This document shows, piece by piece, positions 2,765 to 25,598 of a stretch of 32,000 bases of DNA. A model generated the notes under the pieces. That model saw nothing but the letters and a program-made list of their open reading frames with translations, had not been told where the DNA came from and did not search any database. The position numbers were made by a program, and so were the translations under genes. The stretch is from NCBI RefSeq assembly GCF_025273655.1, contig NZ_CP045921.1, positions 1 through 32,000 on the forward strand. Reading direction: 5' to 3'. Each line of letters opens with the position of its first letter. Within the stretch, counting starts at the first letter, position 1. This DNA comes from Candidatus Saccharimonadota bacterium (GTDB taxonomy: Bacteria; Patescibacteriota; Saccharimonadia; Saccharimonadales; Saccharimonadaceae).

Positions 2765-3808
2765 GTGGATATCACTGGTCTTCGCGTTCAGCACACTCGC
2801 AGCCATGACGATGCGAGCTTTGTGTTTGGTCAGCGCGTCAGCGTGATTACTGGGCCGAACGGATCTGGTAAAACGACACTACTCGAAGCACTTCACGTAG
2901 CGCTGCGGGGCACGTCGTTTCGCGGTAGTGACAGTGAGTTTCTGGCGCGCGATGAGGACTGGTGGCGTATTGATGTACGACTTGGCGACGAGCAGGCACG
3001 TGTAGTCAAGTTTGATAGTACGAAAACCTCTGGTCGTAAGCAATTTGAAATTGATCACAAGATTAACTATCGCCTGCCCGTCAGCAAGAAATATCCGGTG
3101 ATTTTGTTTGAACCGGACGATTTGCGTCTGCTAGGCGGTTCCCCTGCTCGCAGGCGGCAGTTTATTGATACGTTTATAACCCAAATCAATCCACTATACA
3201 CGAGTACCACACGCAAATATGAGCGTGCACTCAAGCAGCGTAATGCCCTATTGAAACAGCCTAGTGTGACGCGTGACTCCCTGTTTGTATGGGATATGGC
3301 AATAGCCGAATATGGTGCTGAGATGATTCGTGAACGCAGTCAGATTATCGAGCGTATCAATCAATCGCTGACGGACACATATCGAAGTATTGCGGGTACT
3401 GACGATACGGCGACGCTTCACTATTCGCATACAATTATCGATGGTATTCAGCAGAAGTTGGCGAACGAGCTGCATTACAATTTCGAGCGCGACAGTCTCC
3501 TGGGCTTTACGAGCACCGGTCCACACCGTCATGATGTGGTGGCGGAGTTCAACGGCGCCCCGGCTACAACTCGTGCGAGTCGTGGTGAAATTCGGAGTAT
3601 TATACTTGCGCTGAAGTTTATCGAAGTGGATGTAGCCGAATCGGCGACTGGCTTGTCACCCGTTGTGTTGCTCGACGATGTGTTTGCTGAGCTTGATGAA
3701 TCGAGGCAGCAACGCCTTGCAGAGAAATGTCGCGGCAACCAGATGTTCATCACCAGTACAGGTGCCTATACTGGCATCGACAGCGCGACGGTTATTGCGC
3801 TCGATTGA
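2765..3808 (+). CDS. recF: DNA replication/repair protein RecF (347 aa)
   Basis: GTG start shortly after the dnaN stop. Walker A GPNGSGKTTLLEAL. SMC-like signature/Walker B region SRGEIRSIILALKF...VVLLDDVFAELDESR. Confidence 0.93.
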   Translation: MDITGLRVQHTRSHDDASFVFGQRVSVITGPNGSGKTTLLEALHVALRGTSFRGSDSEFLARDEDWWRIDVRLGDEQARVVKFDSTKTSGRKQFEIDHKINYRLPVSKKYPVILFEPDDLRLLGGSPARRRQFIDTFITQINPLYTSTTRKYERALKQRNALLKQPSVTRDSLFVWDMAIAEYGAEMIRERSQIIERINQSLTDTYRSIAGTDDTATLHYSHTIIDGIQQKLANELHYNFERDSLLGFTSTGPHRHDVVAEFNGAPATTRASRGEIRSIILALKFIEVDVAESATGLSPVVLLDDVFAELDESRQQRLAEKCRGNQMFITSTGAYTGIDSATVIALD

Positions 3809-4415
3809 TATCGACGAGGATGTTGCGGCTTATCGACGGATAGAGCGGCGCGCTCAAGATAGGCATGGGTGGTTTTGAAAGTATGATCCAGCTTCCGTTC
3901 TTTTTCTCCATCAGTACATGTAGAATATCGGCGTTATCATTTGACTGGTCGCGCATAACGAGACTAGCACCATATACTTCTCCTAGGTGGTAGAGCTTGC
4001 CGTGCCGAATGTCGTAGTCGGTCGCGACTTTCGGGTAGGCTGCGATGAGTGTAGATTCGATGACCTGTTGTTCACCTAGGTAGAGTGTGTCGAGATACGA
4101 ACGTGAGTAGCCAAACTCAGCTGTGATGTTGCTTGTTGAGCCATCAATTACCTGCGCATGCCGATCTGCTGCTATATGGGCACCGACACTACGTACCTGG
4201 TAGGTGCCTTTTTTGAGTTTGACAGGTTGATTGTCGGCCGGATAGTAGTTTGGCTGGTTATTGCCGCTGAGCTCTATGTAGCCAAGCTGGCGGTCAAAAT
4301 GAAATGTCACTGTTTGAAATGAGAATATGTAGCTCCAAAGTAGCCATGTGCCAACAGCTGCGGCCGCAACAGTAGTAAGCAATAATATAATCTTTGTTGT
4401 GAGACTGCGGTGCAT
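3792..4415 (-). CDS. Membrane-anchored hypothetical protein (207 aa), last gene of the minus-strand array
   Basis: ATG 4415 overlaps the TAA of the upstream gene (TAATG). N-terminal helix IILLLTTVAAAAVGTWLLWSYIF, then a soluble domain with a GTYQV beta-sandwich-like stretch. The 3' end overlaps recF by 17 bp. No family recognised. Confidence 0.6.
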   Translation of the reverse strand: MHRSLTTKIILLLTTVAAAAVGTWLLWSYIFSFQTVTFHFDRQLGYIELSGNNQPNYYPADNQPVKLKKGTYQVRSVGAHIAADRHAQVIDGSTSNITAEFGYSRSYLDTLYLGEQQVIESTLIAAYPKVATDYDIRHGKLYHLGEVYGASLVMRDQSNDNADILHVLMEKKNGSWIILSKPPMPILSAPLYPSISRNILVDINRAQ

Positions 4416-5071
4416 TACTGAGCCTCCAGCGGGTTGTCAAAACCATCGTAGCGAATACGGTAATCTGTCGGATCATAGCCTTTACTGCGCAGCATACTTA
4501 ATGCTGCTTGACGGCTGTGGGGTGAAGTGCCCCAAATAACTAGTTCCACAGAGGCATCATCATGGTTCTGGTAGTCGACCGAATAGTACGGATCTTTGAT
4601 TGGTAGTACATTGACGATAGGATTTGTAGATTCAAACAGCGCATTATAGTCACGATTGCGTGCGACGGTGAGTGTCTCAAGATGTTGGTATTCTGCTTGA
4701 TGGCGAGCTTGCCAGGCTTTTGCGTCATCAGAGCGTGCGACGAGACCGATATAAATATATCCGAGTGCGTTATCTGACACTCGCAGATCACGGGTTTGTG
4801 AGTCGAATCCCTCTTTTTTGACAGTAACTTTGTACGTGCCAGGTACGATATACGCAGTGCCGCTTTGCGGCAGAGGCTGACCTGTCGATAGTGTTACGCT
4901 GGCGTCGGTCGGCACTACTTGTACTGGTACGGCAATTTTGCCCGCGCGCTGCTGAGCGAGCCAGATATTGTACCAGATGGTCATACCGACGACGAGTACT
5001 ACACATACTATTAGACCTGCAAGGAGCTGGCGGCGATATTTTCCGAGATAATACGAGAGTTCGTAATCCAT
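4415..5071 (-). CDS. Membrane-anchored PEGA-like domain protein (218 aa)
   Basis: ATG 5071 directly follows the TAA of the upstream gene (TAAATG). Single TM LLAGLIVCVVLVVGMTIWYNIWL. PEGA-like segment PTDASVTLSTG...VPGTYKVTVKKEGFDSQTRDLRV. Confidence 0.6.
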   Translation of the reverse strand: MDYELSYYLGKYRRQLLAGLIVCVVLVVGMTIWYNIWLAQQRAGKIAVPVQVVPTDASVTLSTGQPLPQSGTAYIVPGTYKVTVKKEGFDSQTRDLRVSDNALGYIYIGLVARSDDAKAWQARHQAEYQHLETLTVARNRDYNALFESTNPIVNVLPIKDPYYSVDYQNHDDASVELVIWGTSPHSRQAALSMLRSKGYDPTDYRIRYDGFDNPLEAQ

Positions 5072-6346
5072 TTACTTCTTCCTGTACCAATTATACCCGG
5101 GCTGTGTGGCACTCTGCTGAGTATCGGCCATCGGCGCACGTTCGTCGAGCGAAGCAGAGGCAATTGTGGCGCCAAACCCATCAGGCTTTTTGCCACGGTC
5201 ACCGACGTAGATGAAGGTGTGAGATGAGTTGATTGCCACGTCACCTTGCTGAAGTTTTCCTGGCGTGACATCCTCTGGTTTGATTTTAACCCAGTTTTTT
5301 TGCATCCAGGCTTCTTGGGAGCTTGTCGGCCCCCCTTTGCCGTTGTAGTTATAGCCTGGGTCATAGCCGCTATCGCGCACCAGGAGTGTCACGAAGCCGC
5401 CGCAATCGATACCTCGTGTTGTGGCAGTGGTGCCACCGACATAGTAGCCGCCAGCAAGAGCTTTTTTGACGGCGGCGGCATAGGCGTCGGTCGGCTTGAT
5501 TGTCATGCCTTTATAGGTCGGCCACGCGTAAGCTTTGAGGGTTTGATCGAGATTGCCTCCAGAGAAGCTACTGCTCGCGCAGCTACTATCGCTGGACTCT
5601 GATGTACTTTGACTCGTGTCACTCGCGGCTTGGCCATGCTCATCGACCTTCTCTTCTCCACTCGGATTATTCATCTCACTGCTAGCAGTACTACCGGCAA
5701 GTGCGGGGGCGTTCTTGTACTGATCATAGACCTTTTTGGCATTGCCGCCACGCACACTGCGCACTGCCGAGTCTGAGTCTGCCGAGCTTTCATAGCCATC
5801 GTGTACGACGACGGCCGCTTCTACTGGGTCGTTGGTGCGCTTGAGATTATTGAGCGTAGAAAGGTATGGGCCAGATAGTTCTACCCAGGTGAAACTGAGC
5901 TGGCCACCAAGGTCGGTGTTTTTGACGCCCATTTTGTCGATATGATCCTGGAGGGGTTTTTGACGCCCCGTAAAGGTCCACTGTACGAGCCCGAAGCCGA
6001 CGCCGTTTTGCAGCGTGTAGGTTTCGTTTTCGCCAATCAGCTTGCCGCCTTGCACTACATTTGGTTTCAGGCCGGATTCCTGCATCATATTCCCGACGAT
6101 ACCGCTTGCCTGGGCAAGATTAAGGCCTTTGCGCATATAGAAGTTGAGAATTTTTTCGACATTGTTGTTGCCAGCGAGTGATACAGCCCCTGCGCCCTGT
6201 GTTCTGCATTCATCATCGACAGCCCATGCCTCTTGGAGCATATACCTCTGCGGGTCGGTGATGGCCGCTACACGCACAGGAAATACCAGCTCATTCATGA
6301 GTAGGATGGCGGTGATCGCCAGGCAGACAGCACGACCAAAGCGCAT
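5072..6346 (-). CDS. Secreted two-domain peptidoglycan hydrolase: lysozyme-like (Phage_lysozyme2-type) + NlpC/P60- or CHAP-like cysteine peptidase (424 aa)
   Basis: Preferred ATG 6346, 1 nt after the TAA of the upstream gene, gives the signal-like N-terminus MRFGRAVCLAITAILLMNELVFPVRVAA. The track start 6433 would overlap the upstream gene by 86 nt. Motifs GIVGNMMQESGLKPN...GFGLVQWT. Ser-rich linker. C-terminal candidate catalytic Cys in GIDCGGFVTLL and His in SSHTFIYVG. The architecture parallels two-domain conjugation hydrolases of the CwlT type. Confidence 0.75.
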   Translation of the reverse strand: MRFGRAVCLAITAILLMNELVFPVRVAAITDPQRYMLQEAWAVDDECRTQGAGAVSLAGNNNVEKILNFYMRKGLNLAQASGIVGNMMQESGLKPNVVQGGKLIGENETYTLQNGVGFGLVQWTFTGRQKPLQDHIDKMGVKNTDLGGQLSFTWVELSGPYLSTLNNLKRTNDPVEAAVVVHDGYESSADSDSAVRSVRGGNAKKVYDQYKNAPALAGSTASSEMNNPSGEEKVDEHGQAASDTSQSTSESSDSSCASSSFSGGNLDQTLKAYAWPTYKGMTIKPTDAYAAAVKKALAGGYYVGGTTATTRGIDCGGFVTLLVRDSGYDPGYNYNGKGGPTSSQEAWMQKNWVKIKPEDVTPGKLQQGDVAINSSHTFIYVGDRGKKPDGFGATIASASLDERAPMADTQQSATQPGYNWYRKK

Positions 6347-6347
6347 G

Positions 6348-9284
6348 TTAGCCGCTACCTCCGCTGGCTTTATCGAGGTAAGGTTTTGGGTCGATAGGCT
6401 GACCGGTGCCGCTATTAGTATCGGAGCGTCCACCGGGCCATATTTCGAAGTGAAGATGCGGACCAGTGCTCTGCCCTTCGCTGCCGATACCAGCGATAGG
6501 CTGACCAGCCTTTACAGTATCCCCTACTTTTACGAGTATAGTATTGGCGCGCATGTGTCCATAGACAGTGTCGACGCGTTGTCCGTCGACCTCGTGCTGG
6601 ATCACAACCCAGTTACCGAAGCCGTTCGCGGGTCCGGCGGCAATCACCTTACCATCACGCGCAGCGTAGATTGGTGTACCGAGCGGCCCGGCTAGGTCGA
6701 TACCGTTGTGGCGGGTACCATCGCGCATACCGAAGCCGCTCGACACTTCCGTCTTGCTTTTCACGGTTGGGTAGGCCCAGCCATCGAGGCCAACTTTACC
6801 GGCTGCGCCACCATCGAATGCCTCTTGTGAGCCACCATCCATACCTGGCAGATTTTGGTCGAGTCCTTCGTTGATACCGAGGCTGAGCTTGAACTTGGCA
6901 TAGTGCCAATTCTTTTCGTAGTTAGCTTCGGCTACGCAGCCGCTGCCATTTGTCGGGTCTTTTTCAATATCTTCGGTAGCGCCAGGTTGCTGGTCGACAC
7001 ACTGTTCGAGATATTTCTTGTAGTTCCATAGTTGGCCGTTATCTGCCGGATCACCACTGTCAGAATCAACAATAATTTCGCCGTGCTCTGCCATCCACTT
7101 GGCGTTCTCGACTGGGTCGATCTCCATGGCTTCGTCTGGTAGGCCGAACACCATCACACATGTAGGATTAATGGCGACATTTGGTCCGAGCTGCGCATAG
7201 TCAGGGTCGTTGCAGTACGTGTAGCGATCTTTTTTGACAATATAGTCCGAGTCGGCGTGTGTGAGTGGCATGGCGACCGTACTCATGGCAGTGGTCGCGA
7301 CAGATGGCAGTGCGGCTAATGCGCCACCGAGATGTGTGCTGTCAATAGTGCGGAGGCTGGCGGCAATTGGCAGCGTAGTGCGCGCTAGTGAGCCGAGAAA
7401 AGAGAATTTATTGCTAGTATCAAACGGCTTTTTCACTGCGGCTAGCCGGTCGAGCTCATCGTATGCCTGCAACGTCTCGCGTTTACTGTTTTGGTATTTT
7501 GTCATTTTGTCTGGGCTGAGACTCATCATGCCTTGGGATCGTGCCATGCCGTTATACATCGCATCCGAGCCTACGGCGGTGGCGGTGCCGAAGTCGGTGT
7601 ATTTGAGGCCTTTGGTGACACTACCCGCAGCAATACTCGCAAGTTGTGCGGTCAGGAGCGGCATGGCCGCGCCAAACGCCACCGACAAGCCAAGCTGTGC
7701 AGCGGTACCGGCGCCAAATGTACCTACGCCCACAGCAATCGATACCGCTAGTACTCCGGCACGCACGAAGTTATTTTGCACGACACGGCAACGCTGTGAC
7801 ACCTCTGCCGTGGAACTGGCACCGGTCATGCGCGCCACGAGTTGCTGGGCGTTGCCAATCCCTGCTAACCTGTCACCACCAAGGAGAAGTGCTTTGCCCT
7901 GTTGGCTCATATTTTTCACGCCACCAAAGTCTTGATCTCGCGAGCCTTTCACGAGGGGCGAATCGAAGGCATTTTTACCACTATCGGGGCTGACTACTTC
8001 TGGAAGGTCGCTTCCGTAGGGTGTCTCACCTATTTTGGACTGATCGGCCACCTTCGTAGCAGGCGCGGCGTCCATAAGACGGTTTGACGGTGCTTCTACC
8101 GCCTCTGGGTATGATGTCTCGGCACGGAGCATGCTGGCAGGTTGAAATACGTTGTAGAACGCCAATCGTATCATCTCTTTGTATTGGAGGACGCGTGCGG
8201 CAACTCGCACGGCGGTGGCAGTGTTGAATACGGTACAGGCTGTATCGAGGGCATTGACCCGTCCAGCTGCCTTGCCGATAGTATCGCTGACAGCACCGAC
8301 AGATGGCGAGGCGTCGAGCTGTTTGCCGAAATCTTCGATAGCTTTGGCCTCTGCGGCACTATAGCGACGCCCATCTTCATCTTCGAACTCCCCGGTTTCG
8401 TTGCCATCTTTGTCTTTGACCGGTGTGAGCTTCGACGTCTCGATGTCGGTTTCTCCCGAGACGCGCTTGTCGGTCTCCTCCTGTACCTCTTTGACGGTGT
8501 TTTTCTTTTCGCCCATAGCGTAGGTAACTTTATTTTTAGAGAGGAAGTCCATGATTTCTTTGCCCTTATAGACACTGAAGCGCGGGCTATAGACCATGTA
8601 CATTTTGGCTCGGAACACGGGGTCGGACTTCATAAGTTTGGTGAAGGCTTCTGGTGAGTTGGCCTCGATGCGTGTGCCATCGGCTTTGACTACAGAGATA
8701 GTTTTGATACGGCCTCGCTTCTCAGTGAAACCTTTGTCTTCGTCAAACGTCATCATGAGTTTGTCGTCGCTCGAGGCATTGATGCGCCCAAGCGTTTTTT
8801 CCATCTTCTCCATATTGACGGTCTCATAGCGGCAGGCGATTTTGACAGCACCACAGGAGCCTTTGGTGGCTGTACTGAGTTTGTTGCGCCAGAGTTGTGA
8901 TGTGGTCTTGTCGACGCCTGAGAGCTGTGTGTTGAGGTCTCGGTCTAAGATGTCTGCCATCATGAGTAGTGGTGTCCCTGGCGCGAGACTGACGATAACA
9001 GCGCTACTTCCTCCGGCGATAAATAGTGCGATTGCGATGGCGGGTGATTTGCGACGCATGCCTTGAAAGAAGCCGGTGAAACGGCGTTTGCTACCGCCCG
9101 ATCGCTTGGGCGCACGCGTTTCTGGTGGTTTGGTCTGCTGGGCAAGTCGGGCGGCTTCAGTACGAGCGGCAGCTTCGCCATCTGCGTGCGCAAGGGTGGC
9201 GGCGCGTTTCTTTTCTTGGTCATACCAAAGACCCTGCTCTTCGAGCCGAATGTTTCCGGGAGATCGTTGTTCGTCCTGCGGCAT
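6348..9284 (-). CDS. Large membrane-anchored protein with C-terminal Peptidase_M23 (LytM-type) domain (978 aa); VirB1/PrgK-like role proposed
   Basis: GGTGGAG RBS upstream of ATG 9284. Charged N-terminus, TM AIAIALFIAGGSSAVIVSL, second hydrophobic block AGVLAVSIAVGVGTFGAGTAAQLGLSVAFGAAMPLL. C-terminal zinc motifs HNGIDLAG (HxxxD) and GPHLHFEIW (HxH). Confidence 0.8.
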   Translation of the reverse strand: MPQDEQRSPGNIRLEEQGLWYDQEKKRAATLAHADGEAAARTEAARLAQQTKPPETRAPKRSGGSKRRFTGFFQGMRRKSPAIAIALFIAGGSSAVIVSLAPGTPLLMMADILDRDLNTQLSGVDKTTSQLWRNKLSTATKGSCGAVKIACRYETVNMEKMEKTLGRINASSDDKLMMTFDEDKGFTEKRGRIKTISVVKADGTRIEANSPEAFTKLMKSDPVFRAKMYMVYSPRFSVYKGKEIMDFLSKNKVTYAMGEKKNTVKEVQEETDKRVSGETDIETSKLTPVKDKDGNETGEFEDEDGRRYSAAEAKAIEDFGKQLDASPSVGAVSDTIGKAAGRVNALDTACTVFNTATAVRVAARVLQYKEMIRLAFYNVFQPASMLRAETSYPEAVEAPSNRLMDAAPATKVADQSKIGETPYGSDLPEVVSPDSGKNAFDSPLVKGSRDQDFGGVKNMSQQGKALLLGGDRLAGIGNAQQLVARMTGASSTAEVSQRCRVVQNNFVRAGVLAVSIAVGVGTFGAGTAAQLGLSVAFGAAMPLLTAQLASIAAGSVTKGLKYTDFGTATAVGSDAMYNGMARSQGMMSLSPDKMTKYQNSKRETLQAYDELDRLAAVKKPFDTSNKFSFLGSLARTTLPIAASLRTIDSTHLGGALAALPSVATTAMSTVAMPLTHADSDYIVKKDRYTYCNDPDYAQLGPNVAINPTCVMVFGLPDEAMEIDPVENAKWMAEHGEIIVDSDSGDPADNGQLWNYKKYLEQCVDQQPGATEDIEKDPTNGSGCVAEANYEKNWHYAKFKLSLGINEGLDQNLPGMDGGSQEAFDGGAAGKVGLDGWAYPTVKSKTEVSSGFGMRDGTRHNGIDLAGPLGTPIYAARDGKVIAAGPANGFGNWVVIQHEVDGQRVDTVYGHMRANTILVKVGDTVKAGQPIAGIGSEGQSTGPHLHFEIWPGGRSDTNSGTGQPIDPKPYLDKASGGSG

Positions 9285-9334
9285 GCTAGAGTCTACTCCA
9301 CCCTATAAAAGAAAAGGGTAACTATTACAGACAG

Positions 9335-9363
9335 AGTATACACCTTTTTTGCATATTATGCAA
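9335..9363 (-). promoter_or_regulatory. Sigma70-like promoter for the 978-aa hydrolase operon, with the -35 inside a palindrome
   Basis: Minus strand: TTGCAT (9363-9358), 17 nt spacer, TATACT (9340-9335), about 50 nt upstream of ATG 9284. The -35 lies inside the 15-nt palindrome TTGCATA-T-TATGCAA (9349-9363). Confidence 0.45.
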
Positions 9364-9388
9364 TCTTATATTAGTGATATCGGGCTTA

Positions 9389-9832
9389 TTACCACGGTAT
9401 GCTGTACACTAAATAAATAGAAGTGAACATCGCTACTATGTGCGTAAAAACAGGGAATCGCCTATAAAGTGGCGTAAGTATCCCGGCAGCAATCAGAACG
9501 GGTAGAAATGTGAGAAGGATGCGTGAGATATTCAGTGGAGTGAAGTCCGACGAGACGAGCCGAAATAGGATAAGAGGTATAATTACGATACTTACCATGC
9601 AGCCAAGTAAAATCAGGAAATTATTAAGCTTCGTTGTAGTTGGGTGTTTGAGATGTGGACTGGCAACAATAATGAGCGAAATACACGCCGGTAGAAGTGG
9701 CCACAGCGGCATGGAATAATGCGACATTGAAAACACAAAAGCGAGTGACCACATCGTCAAATACGCAATCAAAGGATTATCTCCAATAAAGAAATTACGC
9801 CAGAACGCTACAAAAAGCTGCAGTCTCTTCAT
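9389..9832 (-). CDS. Small polytopic membrane protein, unknown function (147 aa)
   Basis: ATG 9832 overlaps the TGA of the upstream gene (ATGA). Four to five hydrophobic helices. A+T-rich coding sequence. No family recognised. Confidence 0.6.
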   Translation of the reverse strand: MKRLQLFVAFWRNFFIGDNPLIAYLTMWSLAFVFSMSHYSMPLWPLLPACISLIIVASPHLKHPTTTKLNNFLILLGCMVSIVIIPLILFRLVSSDFTPLNISRILLTFLPVLIAAGILTPLYRRFPVFTHIVAMFTSIYLVYSIPW

Positions 9833-10716
9833 CCGATGTACCCCGCATTACCAGTCACAAATGATAAATCCTCTGTTGGAAGTGGATTGTTTCGAAACGC
9901 TGCGTATAGTCCGATAGCAATCACAACGAATACTATAGCGGTGATAATCATGTTGCGCAGTAGCGTTCGATCCGGCGGGGCTATACCCTTTCTGGGATCC
10001 TCCAATAGGTACATAGACAAGATCGAGACACCAAGATATGTTGGTACGAGTAGCGCAAAAGCCACATACTCATTTGGCCAGATAATCCCGGCCCCGGTTG
10101 CCGCAAAGACGGTTCCGAAACTGACAAGTAAAATTCCCACTGCGAATTTCATGGAGTTTTCTGGAAACTTAGAAAGTGGCTTATGAATAAACACCCCAAG
10201 ACCACTCACGAGCAATATGGCGGCAACTGAGATACTTGCGCCAAATAGCAGGTTATCGTAGAGCGCACCAAATGCCAGTACGATAAATATTACCTCAAGT
10301 CCTTCAATGATGATTGTTTTATAAGCGATTACAAACGCGTACCAGTCTATACCCTCTCGCTCACCCTTTTGGCGTTTAGCATTTCTTCGTTCTCTATCAT
10401 ATACTTCAAGTTCATCACGTGTCGGTTTGAGGCCCATGTAGCGCAAGATAGCCTTGTGTACCCACTGCAGGCCAAAAATCAACAATATCCCACCGCCAAA
10501 CAGCCATACTGCATGAAGTGGAACTAGCAAAAGCGCATAGCCAACGGCTGCCACGATGACAGTTAGCGTGAGCACGCCGGCTATGATCGCATATGTCACT
10601 GAGCGCCATCCGCGAACTATTGCTACCGCGAGGACGATAGTAAGTGCTTCGATTGCCTCAACTGCTGCTGCGAGGAATATTGCAACACCAAAAAATAAAT
10701 CAGGAGTGGCGTTCAT
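9829..10716 (-). CDS. Polytopic membrane protein with internal two-fold repeat, transporter-like (295 aa)
   Basis: Preferred ATG 10716, 1 nt after the TAG of the upstream gene (track start 10728 is TTG). About 8 hydrophobic segments split by the charged loop RDELEVYDRERRNAKRQKGEREG. Each half begins with an acidic helix (AAVEAIEALTIVLAV / IIIEGLEVIFIVLAF). Weak resemblance, from memory, to UPF0016/GDT1- or COG4280-type proteins. Confidence 0.55.
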   Translation of the reverse strand: MNATPDLFFGVAIFLAAAVEAIEALTIVLAVAIVRGWRSVTYAIIAGVLTLTVIVAAVGYALLLVPLHAVWLFGGGILLIFGLQWVHKAILRYMGLKPTRDELEVYDRERRNAKRQKGEREGIDWYAFVIAYKTIIIEGLEVIFIVLAFGALYDNLLFGASISVAAILLVSGLGVFIHKPLSKFPENSMKFAVGILLVSFGTVFAATGAGIIWPNEYVAFALLVPTYLGVSILSMYLLEDPRKGIAPPDRTLLRNMIITAIVFVVIAIGLYAAFRNNPLPTEDLSFVTGNAGYIG

Positions 10717-10717
10717 A

Positions 10718-12184
10718 CTAGAGAGCAAGCGCCTTGTTTATTGGTAAATCATTTGGATTATTTTGGTATTGGACTGCGTTTACATCAATATCGTACGACT
10801 GCAGATATGTCTGGACGAATCGTTGACACTTTGCCAGCGACTCTGGCTTAGCTGTAGTCACAATATTTGGCTTTGCATTCGATTTGAAGTTAACAAAGTC
10901 AAAATAACAATCTTCTTGTTCATACGGAAATAGTAGATTGAGCTGAGTAATCAGAGCTGACGGTTTTAATTTGCTGCCAAGTCCTACTTTGAAGAGTTTG
11001 AACGAATATTCGTTGTCGATAAAGCGCTGCGACGTGACATAGATATTCTTTTTCGCACTATCGATTGCCATGAAATTGATGTCGCCCGGTATAGAGCTGA
11101 GGTCGGCAAGCTGGTGAGCAATGCCATCATTGAGCGTGTATCTCCAAACTATTTTCGACCCTGCATAGATAATCGAGTTTTCATCGATCCAGGTTGGTGC
11201 AGTAGAATTATTTTTTGGTGTACTCTGAATAAGTTTGAGTTTGGTATCATAAATCCCGTTCAAGTCACCATTGAGAACTATTTTGTTGCCCGATGGCGAG
11301 AAGAAACCTTCGTACACTTCGCCATCTATCTTGTTTTGCGTACCATCAGTGCGAATAATATGAACACCACCCTCACGCGAGCTCTGGGATCGCTCCGCTA
11401 CCAGTACCGCACTATTCGTGCTATCGAGCACACTCAGTCCATCACCTTCGTATACCTTCTGGTATGACTCGCTTCCTGAGGTTTTTTTGTAGAGCGTTTT
11501 GCGGTCTGACACATAGATTGTTTTATCGGGTGAGATACTTGCTGACAACTGGCCAGAACTCAGGTTGAGATTTGCGATAGCTGACTCCTTAAGGGTGCTT
11601 CCATCTGTTTCGTACAGTTGATTTGCAATGCTCACTCCTAAGCCCGTACCGTCATTTGCCCAATTCATTGATGAAAAGTACCCGCGCATTAATTCATCTT
11701 GGCTTACCTGACCACTGAGGTCAACAATTTGATTATTTGCATCAACCGAGAGGAATCGTTTTTGTAGTACGTTGTTGTTATTTACAAAGCTTAGGCGCTT
11801 ATCGTTGATATAGGAGAACATTGCGCCAAAGCTTGTTACGGGCTCAATACTATAGATATCTGCACTATCAGATATACTCAATTCAACCGTTGTCTTTTGT
11901 GCGAAATTTACATGAACGACTTTTTCTGTCGACCCGCCGCTAGATTTTGCACTGACCGCATAGTCCCCTGTTGGTACGGTATGTGAGCTTCTGGTACCAT
12001 CTAGTTTGAAATTGATAACTTCTGGGTTTGGTCGTATCCTTCGCACCTGAACCTCATAGCCAGCCTTGTCGACGACTACTTCAAGTGAACCCATAGTGAA
12101 GAGGCGGAATAGAAGCGCTATAAGTATTGCGGCGACTGATCCGATTACAAATGCGAGTATGATTTTTTTAACTTTTGGCTCCAT
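10718..12184 (-). CDS. Membrane-anchored PEGA/Ig-like + beta-propeller-like protein (488 aa)
   Basis: Preferred ATG 12184 with AGGAGG 5 nt upstream, where the SD overlaps the TAG of the upstream gene (track start 12208 is TTG). TM KKIILAFVIGSVAAILIALLF. TGDYAVSAKSSGGSTEKVVHVNF stretch. Recurring strand motifs ISPDKTIYV, FSPSGNKIV and IDSAKKNIYV suggest a TolB-like propeller. Confidence 0.6.
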   Translation of the reverse strand: MEPKVKKIILAFVIGSVAAILIALLFRLFTMGSLEVVVDKAGYEVQVRRIRPNPEVINFKLDGTRSSHTVPTGDYAVSAKSSGGSTEKVVHVNFAQKTTVELSISDSADIYSIEPVTSFGAMFSYINDKRLSFVNNNNVLQKRFLSVDANNQIVDLSGQVSQDELMRGYFSSMNWANDGTGLGVSIANQLYETDGSTLKESAIANLNLSSGQLSASISPDKTIYVSDRKTLYKKTSGSESYQKVYEGDGLSVLDSTNSAVLVAERSQSSREGGVHIIRTDGTQNKIDGEVYEGFFSPSGNKIVLNGDLNGIYDTKLKLIQSTPKNNSTAPTWIDENSIIYAGSKIVWRYTLNDGIAHQLADLSSIPGDINFMAIDSAKKNIYVTSQRFIDNEYSFKLFKVGLGSKLKPSALITQLNLLFPYEQEDCYFDFVNFKSNAKPNIVTTAKPESLAKCQRFVQTYLQSYDIDVNAVQYQNNPNDLPINKALAL

Positions 12185-12192
12185 GGTACCTC

Positions 12193-15192
12193 CTAGAATT
12201 TCGGCCAATCTGCCGGCACTGGCTTAGTACTGGTTGGTCCTTGAATTTGACCACCCTTGCCGCCAAGCTTTTTGATGAACTTATCCATATATAAACCTGA
12301 GCTTGACGCGTAGCTACCACCTCCGCCTGCATTGTAATCCGACCAACTCACATATCCAGACCCACTTTGTTTGCCGCCGCCTTCCGCAAATCCAAGTTCG
12401 AGCCAAGAATCGGCGTATGTGTAGGTGCAGATTTCCTTGTTGGCATCGACTGTATCACCTTCTTTCACTCTTGGGATACAATCCTCCGTGATATAGACAG
12501 ACTTACCTTTCAGCGATCCGGCCGTAAATTCATATTTGATGTAAGAGCCAGGTACACCAGGCCAACCGGAAGAGCCGGTATCTGGCCAGACACCCGTAAT
12601 TTTTGCAGGGCCAATTGCATAGACGGGTTTACCCTTATCGGTGCTGTTGCCCTGATCGATACCTCCGTCAACACGTTTAGAAACATCTTCCGACTGCGTA
12701 AGGTCGCGGAATGGATCTTTGTATTCACCAGTGCTTGCCCCCTGGCTACAGTCGGCAGTTGCATCCGATGATGAACTTGTAGTTGTGGTCGATGGACTTC
12801 CTCCCCCGTCATCTGTTGAGATACTTGCCTCAATCTCTTTTGGTAACGGTTTACCCTTTGATGCCTCTAGAACTGCTTTCGCATATGTTTGGCGTTGAGG
12901 GACACTTTCGCTGTGGGCTGAACGCTCGTATTTATCGTGGAATGACTGTGTGGCGCCATCAGAAGATGTTTGTTTCTTTAAATCTTCACCCGCCCCTGTT
13001 TCTGGTGATGGTGATTTAGGATCTGTTAATTGTGCCCATAGGAAATCCAGCTGGGTGGCGAGCTGATTGGCGTTTTTACCTGATTTTTTTGTAGGGGTAA
13101 TCATCTTGCCAGCAGGTGTCCACTGGACAATACCCCACCCATTTGAATTGCCCTCTGCTTGGTCTGCCGGAGTTTTTGTCGCAAGGGGGGTACTCTGCAG
13201 GCGTTGAGGGGCTACACCCGACTCGAGAATCATATTGCCCACTACACCGGCAGCTTGTTCAGGAGTGAGCTTCTTACCCACTAGATAATTAAAGGCTTTA
13301 GCGGCATTATTATTGCCCGCCAAGCTGCCGCCGCCCGAATCTGGACAGCAGCTGTTACTTTTTGAGTCCTCAAAAAACCCTTTGCGATTTGCAAGCTCAA
13401 GTGCCTTATTATAAGCATCATTGATACGATCGGCTGGCACACCTTGTTTGACTGCACTGATAATTCTTCCAAGCTGTCCTTCGTCAGTAAATTTGAATAA
13501 TGGTGTATCGACACCGCTATTAAAGCTGTCGACGATTGTCTGCTCTAGGGATTTGCCGTTGTAGTGCGTAAGGGCAGTTAGATCATCTGTCATGACAACA
13601 TCTTGGTAATTGAGATCAGTCTTGAGTGAGTCAATCAGTGTCTTGTTGTTTGGCGCTGGGATATTACCCTGGTTTGAGATGTATGCATTTGAAAGCATGA
13701 CAACAGTACCAGTCGGAAGATCCTTAAATACCGACGCTGCAGGACCGTTTGGGTCGTATGTGGTGGATACGGCAGCCTGGTCGCTATTACCTGATACGCT
13801 ACCAATTCCTGGGAAATGTTTATATACACCAGTGATACCACCCTTGTTAAGACCCTCTGTGAATGCGCGCGCCTTGGCTTTTGTGCGTGCTGCATCGGTT
13901 CCAAATGCACGTCCTCCGTTGAGATGATTGCCCGGGTCTCGTGCACCTAGGTCAACTACCGGAGCAAGATCGACATAGACCCCATTCTCACTCAAGGCCT
14001 TGCCGATCTGTTCACCTGCAGCGGTCACTTCATCATTGGGGGCGTTGCCTAGGTCGGCAGCGGCAGGTGTGCCGATATCATACCGATCAACTACGCCACC
14101 CTCTTCATCTGCCGTGGCGATAAACGAACCGAGCGATTTCTCCCTTGCTTGATCGAAGAACTGTTTATTAAACACGGTTCCGGCACCTTGCCCAGTCATA
14201 AAGAGCCCGCCGAGCTTGTACTTATCTATCATTGCGAGCGGTTGCGCTGGACCGCCACCTACGTCGAAGCCGACTATGAATGTCTTGGCTATTTTCTGCT
14301 CAATAGACGGCTCATTTTTTGTCACATCAGCTTGGGCTGGGTTGGTTGCTGTTCCGGAGGTTCCAGCATTTCCAGAGACACCCTGTTGTGTCGATGAGGA
14401 AAGGTTGGTGGTAGAACTTGCCATCAAGTTGCCGAGACGTGTCATACCAGAGGCAGATGGAATCACAGGAGTACCTGGAGTGGCAGTCTCGTTAATCATG
14501 TCCTTAGGGTCAGCGGTTTTGGCCATCTGCGCCTGGTCTGTTGGGTCGAGTGAAGTGTCGACCGCCTGTGCCCAAGACATTAATTTATAACCCTTTTCAG
14601 ATGCAGTATCTCTGATTGCAAGATTAGTTTTGGCGAATCCAGCGGCACCCGCATAAGGTACAGGGTTGTTGGATGCGTAAGTATCTACCCAGTAATAACT
14701 TGCTTTGGGGCTAAGCTCCTTGAGCTTATCGGCAACTTTACCGATGGATCCCTCATCCGCACCACCATAGGTACCAAGCTGGATGATAATAGCTTGCACA
14801 TCTTTGAGTTTATCCTTTGCTGCATCAAGTTTGGCTGGTGCATCGGCGACAGTTTGTCCGCCGATCCCGTTCACCTCGACGCTTGTATATCCACTGTTTT
14901 TGAGACTGCTGGTGATCGAAGCTTTGGCGGCGTTAGTAATGTCGTCGCCTAGTACATATACATTGCCAAGCGCCGTCGGAGATTTACTAGGTGGTCCACA
15001 TGGTTCATAGTAGAGAACCTGGTTTGTGGCGTAGTCAAACGGATATACGCCTGTTTCGGCTTCGGTTGCTGCTTGGGCTGGTAATGACACGACACCCACG
15101 ACAGCAATTGAGAACATGTTTACACGCAGTATCCACAATAGCTCATGCCGTATTATACTAAGTGTTTTTCGTAGGACTGACAATCGTATCAC
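12193..15192 (-). CDS. Secreted multidomain cell-wall hydrolase: SGNH-like (GDD variant) + GH3 NagZ-like + lysozyme-like + degenerate LytM-like C-terminus (999 aa)
   Basis: Track start GTG 15192 overlaps the TGA of the upstream gene (GTGA). Alternative ATG 15117 gives the signal peptide MFSIAVVGVVSLPAQAA. Motifs: VYVLGDDITN; GH3-like ADEEGGVVDRY, DLAPVVDL, KHFPGIGSVSGNSD, VVMTDDLTAL; lysozyme-like AAGVVGNMILESGV...NGWGIVQWT...QLDFLWAQL. The C-terminal ~178 aa are beta-rich and lack zinc ligands. Confidence 0.8.
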   Translation of the reverse strand: MIRLSVLRKTLSIIRHELLWILRVNMFSIAVVGVVSLPAQAATEAETGVYPFDYATNQVLYYEPCGPPSKSPTALGNVYVLGDDITNAAKASITSSLKNSGYTSVEVNGIGGQTVADAPAKLDAAKDKLKDVQAIIIQLGTYGGADEGSIGKVADKLKELSPKASYYWVDTYASNNPVPYAGAAGFAKTNLAIRDTASEKGYKLMSWAQAVDTSLDPTDQAQMAKTADPKDMINETATPGTPVIPSASGMTRLGNLMASSTTNLSSSTQQGVSGNAGTSGTATNPAQADVTKNEPSIEQKIAKTFIVGFDVGGGPAQPLAMIDKYKLGGLFMTGQGAGTVFNKQFFDQAREKSLGSFIATADEEGGVVDRYDIGTPAAADLGNAPNDEVTAAGEQIGKALSENGVYVDLAPVVDLGARDPGNHLNGGRAFGTDAARTKAKARAFTEGLNKGGITGVYKHFPGIGSVSGNSDQAAVSTTYDPNGPAASVFKDLPTGTVVMLSNAYISNQGNIPAPNNKTLIDSLKTDLNYQDVVMTDDLTALTHYNGKSLEQTIVDSFNSGVDTPLFKFTDEGQLGRIISAVKQGVPADRINDAYNKALELANRKGFFEDSKSNSCCPDSGGGSLAGNNNAAKAFNYLVGKKLTPEQAAGVVGNMILESGVAPQRLQSTPLATKTPADQAEGNSNGWGIVQWTPAGKMITPTKKSGKNANQLATQLDFLWAQLTDPKSPSPETGAGEDLKKQTSSDGATQSFHDKYERSAHSESVPQRQTYAKAVLEASKGKPLPKEIEASISTDDGGGSPSTTTTSSSSDATADCSQGASTGEYKDPFRDLTQSEDVSKRVDGGIDQGNSTDKGKPVYAIGPAKITGVWPDTGSSGWPGVPGSYIKYEFTAGSLKGKSVYITEDCIPRVKEGDTVDANKEICTYTYADSWLELGFAEGGGKQSGSGYVSWSDYNAGGGGSYASSSGLYMDKFIKKLGGKGGQIQGPTSTKPVPADWPKF

Positions 15193-18100
15193 TGCTCTAC
15201 CCCTACATGCATATGGTTACATACGTCGGTTACGAGCTCGCTATTCTTGAGTGATGGAGAAGGTGCTGATGGTGGTTTTGAGAAACATTGTTTTTGGCCC
15301 AGCTCTAATTTGACTCCGGCTGTACCTGCTAAATTATCAAGGTACTCGTAAAACTCCTTAACTATTGGTTTATCCGCGGCCGTCCAGTCGATTCGCATCT
15401 GCTGTGGCTGATCTAGATGCGCAACTCCGTTGAGGTCTACGGCTGAGCCTTTTGGATGCCATCCTCCATCACATTCATGACCAGAGGCTTGAGCGCCGAT
15501 AGTAATTTTGTATTTTTTCGATGCCTCGACAAGCATACCGAGCAGCTTACCATTCATATTAGCTTTTCCACCACAGTCAAGTGTCTGAGTACCATCTTTC
15601 GCGGTTTGTTCCATATAGCCTCGCTGCTCCGGGAGTTGGAATTTCACATTTGGGCTATCAAGCAGCGCTTGAGCGGCCGCCTTGGCGTCATCACCAATTT
15701 CTCCTGTTGCTTCTTCTGCTTTTTGTTCACCTTCGTCCGCTACGCCATCACGGATGTTTTCATCTGCGCGGTAAGCATGGAACATAGCAAGCATGGTGGC
15801 AGTAGTACCCGCTTGATCGCTAGGATATGTGCACCAATCGGCAGTTGCCCAGCTTTCATCCTCCGCGGGCACTTCACCACTCTCTTCGCCTTCTTCGCTG
15901 ACGGCATTTTTGGCAATAGATCCGTCTTCAGATCCGCCTGGATCCTCTACTCCTGCCGGCGCGCTACGTGTTACGCAGTATTTATTATATTTTTTATATA
16001 TTTTAGCTTTATCACTGCTTTCGATTTCGCCGGTATCTTTGTTGATGAACCCTTCGTCTTCCATATATTTGATAACACCTGGGTGCGAATCATCTCCCGT
16101 AGCATCGGCAGTCAAGGCCTCAGTTTCCATGTAGGTTGGCGAGACACAAAATGCATCACCTGCGAATGTATGTGTAGGGTCGCTGTCGACCGATGTGCGG
16201 ACCGCTGGGTCCGGGCAACTGTCTTCATTTTCGTCGTATTGACGCATCTCGTTGAATGTACCTTGTGCGGCGTGTGTCATACCGAGACTACCAACTGTTT
16301 TGGCAGCGAGACTCAGTGAAGATAGCATATTTGGCAGAAGCGATGCCGGGTTCCTACTTGAAGTTAGTGCGCCAGAGTTATAGAGATTATGTGTAATTGA
16401 TCCTAGGAATGAGTACTGGTTTGTCGCATCAAACGGTGTGGCTTGGGCGTCATACTGTTCGGCAAGTCTGTAGCTTGACATGTCGTCTGCAGTATCAGCC
16501 AAGAAGCCCTTATAGGAAGCAGCGTTTGCAAATACCAGTCCATTTGTAAGAGCAGTGTTTTGCATCAGAAGTCCCACGCCGGCGGCGAGGGCATTTCCTG
16601 CGTCTATGCCTTTTGTCTCTTCATCAACGGGCATTTTTGAGAGCCAGTCTATCAGATGCTCAACAAACTTTCCTATTATAGGGGCGAGCAAGGCGCCGAT
16701 GGCGGCCGCTATAACCGGCATAGCGGCAATACATGCCAATACTCCAGGTCCAGTGGCACCAAATAGCTGCGCGCACATAGCTGCGTCGCCGAGTGTTTGC
16801 GCCACTTGTCCATTAATGAGACTGCACATGGATTTAATAAGCGCTTTTCCGGCTTTTTTGGATGTACTGGTGTCGCGTCCGGTCAATGTACTCAAGAAAG
16901 GGGCTACCCCTGTACTGATGAGAGGACTGCCGACCGAGGTCTCAAAACTAGAGAGTACATTTGAAACACTTGCAATCGCAGCACCCCCAATTCGATAGCC
17001 GAGGGCGTAAGTCGAAAGCTCCACTAAGTCGCCATGAAGCAACATTTTCATACCCTCGCCATCAGAGAAGGTGGTTTGGTAGAACCTATTGGGCTTTCCT
17101 CCGCTCGTTGGATTTGTCTCGCTATAATTAAGTCGCCCGCCTATATAGTCGGTGATTTGCTGGTCGCTTTCTCCTGCGATTACTTTGTCGAACTCTACTG
17201 CAAATGACATAAAGAATCTGACCAACATCGCAATTTGAAGCATCTTAGCTCCTATCACAACTGCATTTGCCGTCGTATAGGTGGTGCAGGCCAGCGATAC
17301 GACCGATGAGCCAAGTGAGGTAAGCTTTCCAGCCTTCTCTCTTAGCTTACTTGTTTGCTTCTCTCGATTTTCCCTGACCTTTGAAGAGTCTCCATTGGCA
17401 GGGTCTCCCTCTAACTTCATGGACTGCCGGAACGATTTATCGAGCTCTTTCTTATCTTTACCCTCTAGGCCCGGTCCTTTTGTGATACCCCATCTGGTAG
17501 ATAGCAGCTCCTTGAAACGGCTACTCAAGAACGGCTTCTTGGTTACATCGTACGCACGGTTAATCGCTGCTCGAAAAGCCGGAATGCTTTTGAGTGCTGT
17601 AATCGTAGATGTTTTTGAATCTACCTTATGTTCTTTACCACTTGAATCGGTGACAGTGATGGACTTTATCGTCTTTCTGTCCCCCACGTCATCGCCCAAC
17701 TCTACCTTTATGCCGGCCTTACGCAGGTCTTTTACTAGTTTTTCTGGTGCGGTAACAGCCCTACACATTTTTGATTGCGGCTTCTCGCACGCCTTTTTCG
17801 CCTTATCAGGGTTGTTTTTGTCTGGCATCATCGATGAGAATACAGTCAAAAAGCGAGAGTTCATCGCAGGAGCCGACGTGTCGCGGGCATTGGTGAGATT
17901 TGCTTTGATCGCAGCAAATAATGTTGCTGGCGAGCTGAGAAATACAATGACAATCAAGCCAAAAATAGCAATAATTGCGCCGATAGTTGCAATCGGTCCG
18001 CTAGCCTTTACTCCTTTGAGCTGCCCTTTCCCGCCTCCGCCAACTCCGCCACCAGCCCCCATCGGGTTTTGCTCGCCATCCCGGGCTTTTGGCGTAAGGT

Positions 18101-18368
18101 CGCTACTAGCGGAATCTTTTGCCTCATCTTTTTTCTTGCCGGTGGATTTTGCGGATGGCTGAGGATCTTCGTCTTTATCGGAAGAATCGTCTTTTTTGGT
18201 CGACTGATCTGGCAAGTCCGAGTCAACTGAATTTTTCTCTGCTTGTGATAGCTGCTTAGCCGCCTGATACACTCCTATGGCAGAATTAACTTTATCCTGA
18301 AAGGTTTTCTCTGCAGGATTAAGTTCCTCTTGCTCTTCTTCTGGTGGTATATCAAGTAGCGTCGCCAT
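15189..18368 (-). CDS. Large membrane-anchored protein, paralog of the 978-aa protein, with C-terminal LAS-type Peptidase_M15/VanY-like domain (1059 aa)
   Basis: ATG 18368 lies 3 nt after the VirB4 stop. Acidic/Lys-rich N-terminus, Gly run GAGGGVGGGGKG, TM IATIGAIIAIFGLIVIVFLSS. Central region collinear with 6348-9284. C-terminal WHPKGSAVD (HxxGxAxD) and NHMHVGV (HxH). Confidence 0.7.
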   Translation of the reverse strand: MATLLDIPPEEEQEELNPAEKTFQDKVNSAIGVYQAAKQLSQAEKNSVDSDLPDQSTKKDDSSDKDEDPQPSAKSTGKKKDEAKDSASSDLTPKARDGEQNPMGAGGGVGGGGKGQLKGVKASGPIATIGAIIAIFGLIVIVFLSSPATLFAAIKANLTNARDTSAPAMNSRFLTVFSSMMPDKNNPDKAKKACEKPQSKMCRAVTAPEKLVKDLRKAGIKVELGDDVGDRKTIKSITVTDSSGKEHKVDSKTSTITALKSIPAFRAAINRAYDVTKKPFLSSRFKELLSTRWGITKGPGLEGKDKKELDKSFRQSMKLEGDPANGDSSKVRENREKQTSKLREKAGKLTSLGSSVVSLACTTYTTANAVVIGAKMLQIAMLVRFFMSFAVEFDKVIAGESDQQITDYIGGRLNYSETNPTSGGKPNRFYQTTFSDGEGMKMLLHGDLVELSTYALGYRIGGAAIASVSNVLSSFETSVGSPLISTGVAPFLSTLTGRDTSTSKKAGKALIKSMCSLINGQVAQTLGDAAMCAQLFGATGPGVLACIAAMPVIAAAIGALLAPIIGKFVEHLIDWLSKMPVDEETKGIDAGNALAAGVGLLMQNTALTNGLVFANAASYKGFLADTADDMSSYRLAEQYDAQATPFDATNQYSFLGSITHNLYNSGALTSSRNPASLLPNMLSSLSLAAKTVGSLGMTHAAQGTFNEMRQYDENEDSCPDPAVRTSVDSDPTHTFAGDAFCVSPTYMETEALTADATGDDSHPGVIKYMEDEGFINKDTGEIESSDKAKIYKKYNKYCVTRSAPAGVEDPGGSEDGSIAKNAVSEEGEESGEVPAEDESWATADWCTYPSDQAGTTATMLAMFHAYRADENIRDGVADEGEQKAEEATGEIGDDAKAAAQALLDSPNVKFQLPEQRGYMEQTAKDGTQTLDCGGKANMNGKLLGMLVEASKKYKITIGAQASGHECDGGWHPKGSAVDLNGVAHLDQPQQMRIDWTAADKPIVKEFYEYLDNLAGTAGVKLELGQKQCFSKPPSAPSPSLKNSELVTDVCNHMHVGVEQ

Positions 18369-21304: not shown

Positions 21305-21332
21305 TCCCTACCCTCCTCAAGGTATTGTTTGT

Positions 21333-25586: not shown

Positions 25587-25598
25587 GAGCTGATCCCG

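Follow-up and report, generated by a model that had tools for sequence, protein, structure and literature searches.

Two peptidoglycan-hydrolase-type gene modules downstream of virB4 in the origin-proximal type IV secretion locus of a Saccharibacterial parasite

The T4SS (type IV secretion system) of Saccharibacteria is essential, and a review has described its function as "completely unknown" (PMC11665869). The closest described case is S. epibionticum ML1, the same class of organism, whose origin-proximal locus runs VirB6, PrgI, VirB4 and then a hydrolase pair, and also carries a VirB2 pilin array. Within this pair, SEML1_0007 (~1100 residues) ends in a domain assigned by structure to the ECOD Hedgehog/DD-peptidase group and SEML1_0006 combines two lysozyme-like domains with a Cys proteinase; both were already annotated, and both were essential for epibiotic growth in transposon-insertion sequencing (Tn-seq; Wang 2023, Cell, PMC10633639). 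It has also been proposed that peptidase and lysozyme homologues encoded just downstream of virB4 may replace VirB1 (Quinonero-Coronel 2025, PMC12102498). Here we describe the corresponding locus in the first 32,000 nucleotides (nt) of contig NZ_CP045921.1 (assembly GCF_025273655.1), the stretch referred to below as the window, where two hydrolase pairs are found instead of one. One of the four proteins concerned, P4, is 100% identical to GII36_00055, a hypothetical protein of Candidatus Mycosynbacter amalyticus. This cultured Saccharibacterium parasitises and lyses Gordonia amarae, a thick-walled mycolic-acid actinobacterium (PMC11880426), and thus has the kind of host that an initial annotation of the sequence had put forward when it supposed that the machine cuts through more than its own wall.

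The locus is the origin-proximal Saccharibacterial T4SS locus of the two studies cited above, since it combines T4SS core genes with a VirB2-type pilin array. The link to a T4SS made in the initial annotation is borne out by a VirB4 ATPase (NF045971, 375 bits, cut-off 325), PrgI/VirB3, two VirB6-like proteins and the pilin array. Downstream of VirB4, four minus-strand open reading frames (ORFs) encode P1 to P4, 3489 residues in total, in which every motif quoted in that annotation is present; coordinates below are positions in the window on the minus strand unless stated otherwise. The four proteins fall into two modules. Module A comprises P4, with a LAS-like C-terminal domain, P3, with a probably inactive SGNH domain, a GH3 domain, a lysozyme-like domain and an M23-fold domain, and the membrane-anchored protein X496. 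Module B comprises P2, with an M23 domain, P1, with a lysozyme-like and an NlpC/P60-type domain, and the small proteins Y218 and Y207. P1 to P4 are, very probably, T4SS-coupled peptidoglycan hydrolase modules present in duplicate.

We compared the window with 80 Saccharibacterial loci, one genome per species, whose VirB4 is 70-86% identical to that of the window. An ORF map of these loci gave a canonical order of pilin array, one or two VirB6 genes, PrgI, the N-terminal part of VirB4 and VirB4. VirB4 is followed by a scaffold protein of 780-1500 residues, a protein of 370-1040 residues (referred to here as the second gene) and then either Y218 and Y207 or an X496 homologue, and the locus ends at recF, dnaN and dnaA on the opposite strand. 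A complete scaffold gene lies directly after VirB4 in 63 of the 80 loci, and a complete second gene is present in 56. The scaffold family numbers 70 members, with one per locus and two only in the window and in L001. The VirB4 of L001 is among the closest to that of the window (85-86% identity), and its second scaffold paralogue (L001:1-1809) lies upstream of VirB6, is cut at the contig end and stands beside an alpha/beta-hydrolase (BD-FAE) protein.

Set against this canonical layout, the window holds two complete modules in series. Module A resembles the loci that end in an X496 homologue after the lysozyme gene (L042, L059, L061, L063, L069), and module B resembles those ending in Y218/Y207 homologues (L006, L009, L010, L038, L077 and others); a lineage-specific pair of membrane protein genes lies between the two. 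The interval from VirB4 to recF is 14.6 kb in the window versus 2.6-8.6 kb elsewhere (median 6.0, n = 43), where the 10-kb flank taken around each related locus censors any longer interval. Using seven local family models, we counted seven hydrolase-type domains in the window (eight with GH3) versus a median of three and a maximum of four in the other loci, a count that is too low for loci with CHAP, amidase, glucosaminidase or SLT domains. The initial annotation had set this load against the one hydrolase with one or two domains of typical conjugative T4SSs. This needs correcting, as a multidomain load is normal in Saccharibacterial T4SS loci; the high number in the window reflects two modules and not one exceptional machine. 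P2 and P4 are distant paralogues over the scaffold region (23% identity, E 9e-9). We also considered a recent tandem duplication and rejected it, since this identity is so low and each of the two proteins has its best match elsewhere.

The comparison further shows that domains are exchanged at fixed positions of the module. At the scaffold C-terminus, the position equivalent to the P4 cassette, Pfam recognises VanY in 19 of 65 scaffolds, M23 in four, CHAP in three, Peptidase_C39_2 in three and BSP in one, and at least 14 scaffolds end in a domain of the HxH LAS type. The second genes (n = 58) carry Phage_lysozyme2 (40), M23 (9), GDSL (9), CHAP (8), Glucosaminidase (6) and Amidase_2 (4) by Pfam, together with the rarer NlpC/P60 (four by Pfam, 31 by our local model), SLT_2 (3) and Amidase_3 (2). 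GH3 occurs among them in P3 of the window and is absent from the other 56 second-gene proteins. Across genomes whose VirB4 proteins are 83-86% identical, the scaffolds share only 21-26% identity. The hydrolase genes next to virB4 are thus a conserved two-gene module with exchangeable cassettes, whose divergence far outpaces that of the ATPase. Two scaffolds bear unusual cassettes: that at L005:11942-16453 has an Exo_endo_phos nuclease/phosphatase domain together with CHAP, and that at L003:7891-11718 has M23 together with a BSP peptidase domain. Because of these two, the scaffold C-terminus appears not to be restricted to wall peptidases.

The domain calls in P1 to P4 differ in strength. Both lysozyme-like domains, the GH3 domain and the M23 domain of P2, all named in the initial annotation, score above their Pfam gathering thresholds. 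The families that it listed were right, and two further domains of P3, the SGNH and the M23-fold domain, had escaped it. Its claim that the set covers most bond classes was overstated: the window yielded no amidase domain, and sequence does not reveal the specificities. Catalytic residues are intact in the lysozyme-like domains (Glu), in the M23 motifs of P2, in the NlpC/P60-type domain (Cys and His) and at the LAS ligands.

P2 (scaffold protein 2, 978 residues, 6348-9284), preceded by a 104-nt gap, is laid out by hydropathy as an N-terminal tail, a transmembrane (TM) segment at residues 82-100, a hydrophobic region at ~506-560 and the C-terminal M23 domain. This Peptidase_M23 domain (residues 858-953, 6426-6713) scores 105.3 bits against a cut-off of 28.7 (E 1.9e-30), has intact HNGID and HLHFE motifs at residues 859 and 943, and gives domain-level NCBIfam matches to MepM and ShyA.

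Its partner P1 (453 residues, 5072-6433) is a secreted lysozyme and NlpC/P60 protein. The longest P1 frame opens with GTG and overlaps P2 by 86 nt (6344-6433); the true start is likely the ATG at 6346, one base past the P2 stop, where the translation begins MRFGRAV and continues as a predicted signal peptide. Phage_lysozyme2 (PF18013) is matched at residues 91-239 (5717-6163) with 104.8 bits (cut-off 28.2, E 5.7e-30), including GNMMQESG and GLVQWT, and the lysozyme Glu119 of the GNxxxESG motif is near-invariant across 58 proteins. The NlpC/P60-type cysteine peptidase domain (residues 289-451, 5081-5569), with its Cys in GIDCGGF and its His in SHTFIYVG, remains below the Pfam threshold as a single sequence (16.9 bits, cut-off 23, E 0.0066). 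A profile of 30 homologues gathered from related loci, when run against the PDB, supports the assignment, with matches to Spr (2k1g, E 6.7e-6) and MepS (E 1.2e-5) in which Cys and His are aligned; across the 30 sequences C62 is near-invariant and H123 invariant. The NlpC/P60 call of the initial annotation thus has significant support at the level of the family.

P3 (999 residues, 12193-15192) overlaps the end of P4 by 4 nt and is a secreted four-domain protein with a signal-like hydrophobic segment at its N-terminus. Its SGNH domain (residues 73-207, 14572-14976) is like the OatA C-terminus: an 18-member profile matches the OatA structures 6wn9, 6vjp and 5ufy in the PDB (E 2.5e-16). OatA is a peptidoglycan O-acetyltransferase, and the match covers its C-terminal esterase/transferase domain. 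In P3, however, the nucleophile Ser is replaced by Asp (LGDDIT) and the block III oxyanion Asn by Tyr (GTYG), whereas Ser44 and Asn102 are kept in 17 of the 18 family members, the window sequence being the exception at both positions. P0005, a 95% identical relative, likewise reads GDD. The domain is probably inactive, apparently through a loss in this lineage.

The GH3 N-terminal domain of P3 (residues 320-598, 13399-14235) is NagZ/LpqI-like and reaches 98.1 bits (gathering cut-off 27, E 8.8e-28). Its best PDB match is mycobacterial LpqI (6gfv, E 1.7e-18), with KHFPGIG at 458 and MTDDL at 534 aligned with KHFPGHG and FSDDL, so that the nucleophile motif is kept. The NagZ-like reading of the initial annotation stands for these motifs and fails for the acid/base dyad, where P3 has N-S-D in place of the D-S-H of LpqI and NagZ, and for the NCBIfam NagZ equivalog, whose cut-off of 207 is not reached (61.2 bits). 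Seven related proteins with a GH3 domain keep N-[ST]-D, as does PDB 5bu9, which makes N-S-D a conserved variant and not decay and suggests a distinct GH3 subclade; the domain is nonetheless not a canonical NagZ.

The second Phage_lysozyme2 domain (residues 628-776, 12865-13311) scores 107.5 bits (cut-off 28.2, E 8e-31), carries GNMILESG and GIVQWT, and is 35% identical to that of P1. P3 ends in an M23/LytM-fold domain (residues 812-998, 12199-12759). It was modelled by AlphaFold2 with high confidence (predicted local distance difference test, pLDDT, 89; predicted template modelling score 0.85), and a Foldseek search of the PDB with this model returned M23/LytM structures in all of the top 46 positions (best E 2.2e-5). 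The HxxxD/HxH motifs are absent (RVDGGID, LELGF) and the zinc-binding and catalytic His are all lost; an all-carboxylate site with R32, D34, D38, E95 and E124 (domain numbering) is invariant in 29 sequences instead. The family numbers 649 representatives among 1.84 billion clusters. The domain is C-terminal in 108 of 136 proteins, and in 81 representatives it occurs with Phage_lysozyme2 (37) and GH3 (9), and also with GDSL and SLT. It may belong with regulatory, degenerate LytM domains such as those of EnvC and NlpD, or it may be a new variant with catalytic activity. Single-sequence phmmer searches of the PDB with three as yet unassigned domains gave no match.

P4 (scaffold protein 1, 1059 residues, 15189-18368) starts 3 nt after VirB4. 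Hydropathy predicts that its N-terminal tail is cytoplasmic, that residues 126-144 form a TM segment and that a large extracytoplasmic region follows, in which there are two further hydrophobic segments. The C-terminal domain (about residues 900-1059, 15192-15671), with HPKGSAVD at 971 and HMH at 1052, is a probable LAS/M15-type zinc peptidase, and this is the weakest of the six domain calls. For the M15/LAS assignment of the initial annotation speak the H-x6-D and H-x-H motifs, of which H97, D104, H178 and H180 are near-invariant in a 14-member family, and the matches of the family profile to the PDB. All 27 of these are LAS proteins, at E 0.04-1, with the zinc motif aligned to the sites of the hedgehog N-domain, the T5 L-Ala-D-Glu peptidase (endolysin) and VanY-type enzymes. 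In addition, two members of the family give weak matches to Peptidase_M15_3 and M15_4, related scaffolds have VanY at the equivalent position, and the S. epibionticum orthologue of P4, SEML1_0007, ends in the Hedgehog/DD-peptidase domain mentioned above. The sequence from the window itself gave no Pfam match at E <= 10 and no PDB match with single-sequence phmmer.

Structural searches with the P4 domain were of little help. The AlphaFold2 model, built from a four-sequence alignment, has a pLDDT of 72.5; in the PDB its best Foldseek match reaches E 0.059 and ChiX and T5 endolysin, both of them LAS enzymes, rank only 9 and 25, and nothing significant was found in BFVD, where the top match, a Gordonia phage tape-measure protein (E 0.012), is a mere curiosity. 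When the HxH-type and VanY-type scaffold cassettes were compared by hhalign, their zinc motifs came into register, at a probability of only 8.5%. Iterative searches started from VanY-type seeds were set aside as evidence, since they either failed to arrive at the HxH type or strayed along the scaffold region that the proteins have in common.

All four genes belong to one minus-strand operon, which runs from 28124 to 3792 with abutting or overlapping frames except for the single gap upstream of P2. The T4SS core (18372-28124) lies upstream of the hydrolase genes. It begins with two VirB6/TrbL-like paralogues (25599-28124 and 23043-25586), which are 37% identical to each other and match Pfam TrbL below the cut-off (E 0.004-0.009), followed by a putative lipoprotein of 194 residues (22389-22973) and PrgI/VirB3 (21333-22205; PrgI 53.9 bits, cut-off 27). 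VirB4 is split in two (18372-21304), into a VirB4 N-terminal/TrsD-like protein recognised by NCBIfam (20216-21304) and the ATPase of the CD1110 family (18372-20216). The N-terminal protein opens with a Pro/Gln-rich direct repeat, PGYPQQMPGVQQQVPAYSQPVPA, present twice, and the ATPase ends in a poly-Gln tail. A VirB4 of the CD1110/PrgJ type together with PrgI/VirB3 places the system with the MPF-FATA (Gram-positive) type. No VirD4 coupling protein or relaxase was recognised among the scanned ORFs of the window. Divergent from the operon lies an array of six small ORFs (28269-30760, plus strand), and the five tested all match VirB2/T4SS_pilin (Pfam T4SS_pilin E 1e-12 to 4e-5) and also TrbC. Such an array is unusual in a Gram-positive-type T4SS and has been reported likewise for S. 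epibionticum.

Three genes within the span covered by the initial annotation are not of the hydrolase type. X496 (496 residues, TM-anchored, 10718-12208) closes module A. The other two encode a 299-residue OFeT_1 permease-like membrane protein (9829-10728; Pfam OFeT_1 E 2.7e-7) and a small membrane protein of 147 residues (9389-9832); none of the 80 related loci has a homologue of either, and both probably stand outside the hydrolase system. Module B is closed by the small TM-anchored proteins Y218 (4415-5071) and Y207 (3792-4415), which have a weak CarboxypepD_reg/PEGA-like match. A shared TM segment and PEGA-like N-terminus of X496 and Y218 was also considered and found to be unsupported (BLASTP E 0.12-3.9). 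Beyond Y207, recF follows on the opposite strand; the plus-strand genes at the window start are presumably dnaA, dnaN and recF, judged from their order and sizes.

The 104-nt gap upstream of P2 (9285-9388) contains a palindrome, TTGCATAATATGCAA, followed by a TATACT box, and may hold an internal promoter or operator for module B; a scan of the gap for consensus promoters found none by its criteria. The region of P2 and P1 (5001-9000) has a guanine-plus-cytosine content of 0.53-0.55 versus 0.44-0.51 in the rest of the operon, which hints at a separate origin of module B and is too weak to claim horizontal transfer.

The reading that we favour, and to which as a whole we give a probability of about 0.6, is that P1 to P4 form the doubled envelope-hydrolase part of the T4SS. 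P1 and P3 have Sec-type N-terminal hydrophobic segments, and P2 and P4 each have a cytoplasmic tail ahead of a strong TM segment, with one or two more hydrophobic stretches. As with VirB1 or PrgK, hydrolase domains with a membrane anchor or a signal peptide are encoded in a T4SS operon. SLT or CHAP, typical of the TrsG, CD419 and VirB1 profiles, was found by Pfam in none of P1 to P4, and both occur in some related loci. In the proposed mechanism, the scaffolds would sit in the parasite membrane beside the VirB3/4/6 channel, each with a peptidase held out at the far end, and their secreted partner proteins would supply a muramidase to cut glycan strands and an NlpC/P60 or M23-type domain to cut stem peptides. 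Such a local opening of the peptidoglycan would give the channel or pilus a way through the wall of the parasite itself, which on this reading is certainly involved, and probably also, where the two cells touch, through the thick wall of the Gordonia host. The GH3 domain fused to a lysozyme could free N-acetylglucosamine (GlcNAc) from the disaccharide-peptides made, as an added salvage function. Since TM7x, a Saccharibacterium, cannot synthesise uridine diphosphate-GlcNAc (UDP-GlcNAc; PMC10768705), such a fusion would have a rationale.

For the wall of the host in particular the case is an indirect one. It draws on the phage-lysin-like exchange of cassettes, on an extreme divergence relative to VirB4 and on the doubling in a lytic species, and for these reasons we propose, tentatively and at somewhat less than even odds, that the modules act on the host wall. 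Host-wall attack and wall scavenging, both raised by the initial annotation, seem plausible. As exo-acting enzymes that attack the non-reducing GlcNAc of muropeptides, those of the GH3/NagZ type are unable to open a wall. The combination of a fused lysozyme with an exo-acting GH3 would favour scavenging.

Several points weigh against the picture of a doubled hydrolase machine aimed in part at the host. Nothing here tells whether the enzymes act on the wall of the parasite itself or on that of the host, and essentiality in S. epibionticum would be equally well explained by a VirB1-like role in assembly. The scaffold topology with an outward C-terminus is predicted from hydropathy alone, and the LAS assignment of P4 has no confirmation from Foldseek searches of the PDB and BFVD. 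To these are added the censored VirB4-recF intervals, the apparently dead SGNH domain, the N-S-D dyad of the GH3 domain and the loss of every canonical His in the M23-fold domain. As the SGNH domain has no nucleophile and the M23-fold domain no canonical His, the active enzymes may number five to six, not eight.

Given these points, several other explanations need to be considered. P1 to P4 might serve the self wall only, as assembly factors of the VirB1/PrgK/TraG/CwlT type that open the parasite's peptidoglycan, with the second module being redundant or dividing the work between pilus and channel. This is the established role of T4SS hydrolases in Gram-positive conjugation (reviewed in PMC12102498 and PMC12857230), and it agrees with the operon shared with VirB3/4/6 and with the N-terminal TM anchor of the scaffolds, which is like those of PrgK and TraG. 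A lineage's own wall, however, would not be expected to drive scaffolds and cassettes down to 21-26% identity while VirB4 stays at 83-86%, nor to have whole domain types swapped between close relatives, and an exo-acting GH3 has no obvious part in making a hole. We regard this explanation as a serious one that is nonetheless doubtful. Mainly nutritional use, in which host peptidoglycan is depolymerised during or after lysis and feeds amino sugars and peptides to a parasite unable to make them, draws on the same GH3 domain. P3 joins a lysozyme to a NagZ/LpqI-like exo-glucosaminidase, the GH3 plus M23-fold architecture recurs in nine of the 81 family representatives, TM7x lacks UDP-GlcNAc synthesis, as said above, and M. 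amalyticus has been called a lytic and necrotrophic parasite. As the main purpose it seems unlikely to us, since GH3 is missing from the other 56 second-gene proteins, so that what the module has conserved must be something other than salvage, the operon encodes no sugar or muropeptide transporter, with the OFeT_1-like protein as its sole permease, and a synteny with VirB4 this strict speaks for a part in the machine.

The cassettes also invite comparison with toxins. P1 to P4, or their cassettes, could be antibacterial effectors translocated by the T4SS into the host envelope, like the X-Tfe of Xanthomonas and Stenotrophomonas. Polymorphic C-terminal cassettes on a conserved N-terminal region are akin to polymorphic toxin logic, the L005 scaffold bears an Exo_endo_phos domain, and the absence of relaxase and coupling protein from the S. 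epibionticum system suggests protein export (PMC10633639). Against this, the Sec-type signals of P1 and P3 and the integral membrane nature of P2 and P4 make export through the T4SS unnecessary, and neither an immunity gene nor an XVIPCD-like signal was identified, nor a VirD4 in the window, so that we hold translocation to be quite improbable. Still more remote is the idea that these are housekeeping autolysins of growth or division, placed near the origin and the T4SS by chance. The M23, NlpC/P60, LAS and NagZ families do include such enzymes, and there are domain-level NCBIfam matches to MepM, ShyA and DipM; but no NCBIfam equivalog cut-off is reached, a phage-tail lysozyme family is atypical for a division autolysin, and the position directly after VirB4 is kept in 63 of the 80 loci with overlapping or abutting frames.

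A bolder version of the doubled-machine reading would divide the labour between the modules. One scaffold-lysozyme pair would open the parasite's own peptidoglycan and the other would be adapted to the wall of the mycolata host, which is N-glycolylated and bears arabinogalactan. In connection with this, the C-terminal domain of P3 would be a catalytic form of the M23 fold not described before, with its His ligands and catalytic residues all replaced by the invariant Asp/Asp/Glu/Glu. We consider this combination speculative and unlikely to hold in full; if it did, the composite locus would be a genomic signature of a lytic (necrotrophic) as opposed to an epibiotic lifestyle. More generally, a conserved, swappable module that is doubled in a host-lysing species makes host-wall specificity, a split between self and host wall, and amino-sugar salvage testable. 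Two small leads for enzymology are the M23-fold family with its carboxylate substitutions and the GH3 variant with N-[ST]-D.

These results do not overturn current views, as the core arrangement is already contained in the supplementary annotation of Wang 2023; they can be placed among known systems as follows. PrgK (pCF10), TraG (pIP501) and CwlT (ICEBs1) are, like the proteins of the window, anchored or secreted products of MPF-FATA-type operons that combine a muramidase or transglycosylase with a cysteine or metallo-peptidase. In those systems the domains, two or three in number, sit in a single protein (LytM with SLT and CHAP, or a muramidase with NlpC/P60), which has no scaffold region of about 800 residues and serves conjugation with a relaxase and a coupling protein. 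The window, in contrast, has four proteins with Phage_lysozyme2 and GH3 glycosidases, and neither a relaxase nor a coupling protein was recognised in it. Souza and co-workers reportedly described, in 2015, an X-T4SS that kills bacteria, belongs to Xanthomonas and Stenotrophomonas and has peptidoglycan hydrolases as effectors. There too a T4SS is linked to several peptidoglycan hydrolases, which in that case are aimed at another bacterium, and the resemblance goes no further than this pairing. The X-T4SS is, however, a diderm VirB/D4 system whose cytoplasmic substrates bear an XVIPCD signal and are paired with immunity proteins, none of which were found in the window.

For the individual domains, the nearest parallels lie outside secretion systems. 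Phage tail lysins and tape-measure lysozymes (PF18013, and phi29 gp13 with lysozyme and M23) share the lysozyme family of P1 and P3 and likewise pair a glycosidase with M23 or NlpC/P60; phages use them to pierce a Gram-positive wall from outside, whereas the proteins of the window are cellular and operon-linked to a T4SS and are not parts of a virion. LpqI/NagZ (6gfv) shares KHFPG and [ST]DDL with the GH3 domain of P3 and differs from it in having D-S-H instead of N-S-D; in P3, moreover, the domain is part of a secreted protein of 999 residues in which a lysozyme and further wall-directed domains are joined to it. With respect to S. epibionticum, the window adds GH3, the probably dead SGNH domain, a canonical M23 on scaffold 2 and the carboxylate M23-fold domain, and its scaffolds are only ~21-26% identical to those of its relatives. 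The kind of system is thus already known, and what is new here is the composite, doubled module with its unusual domains.

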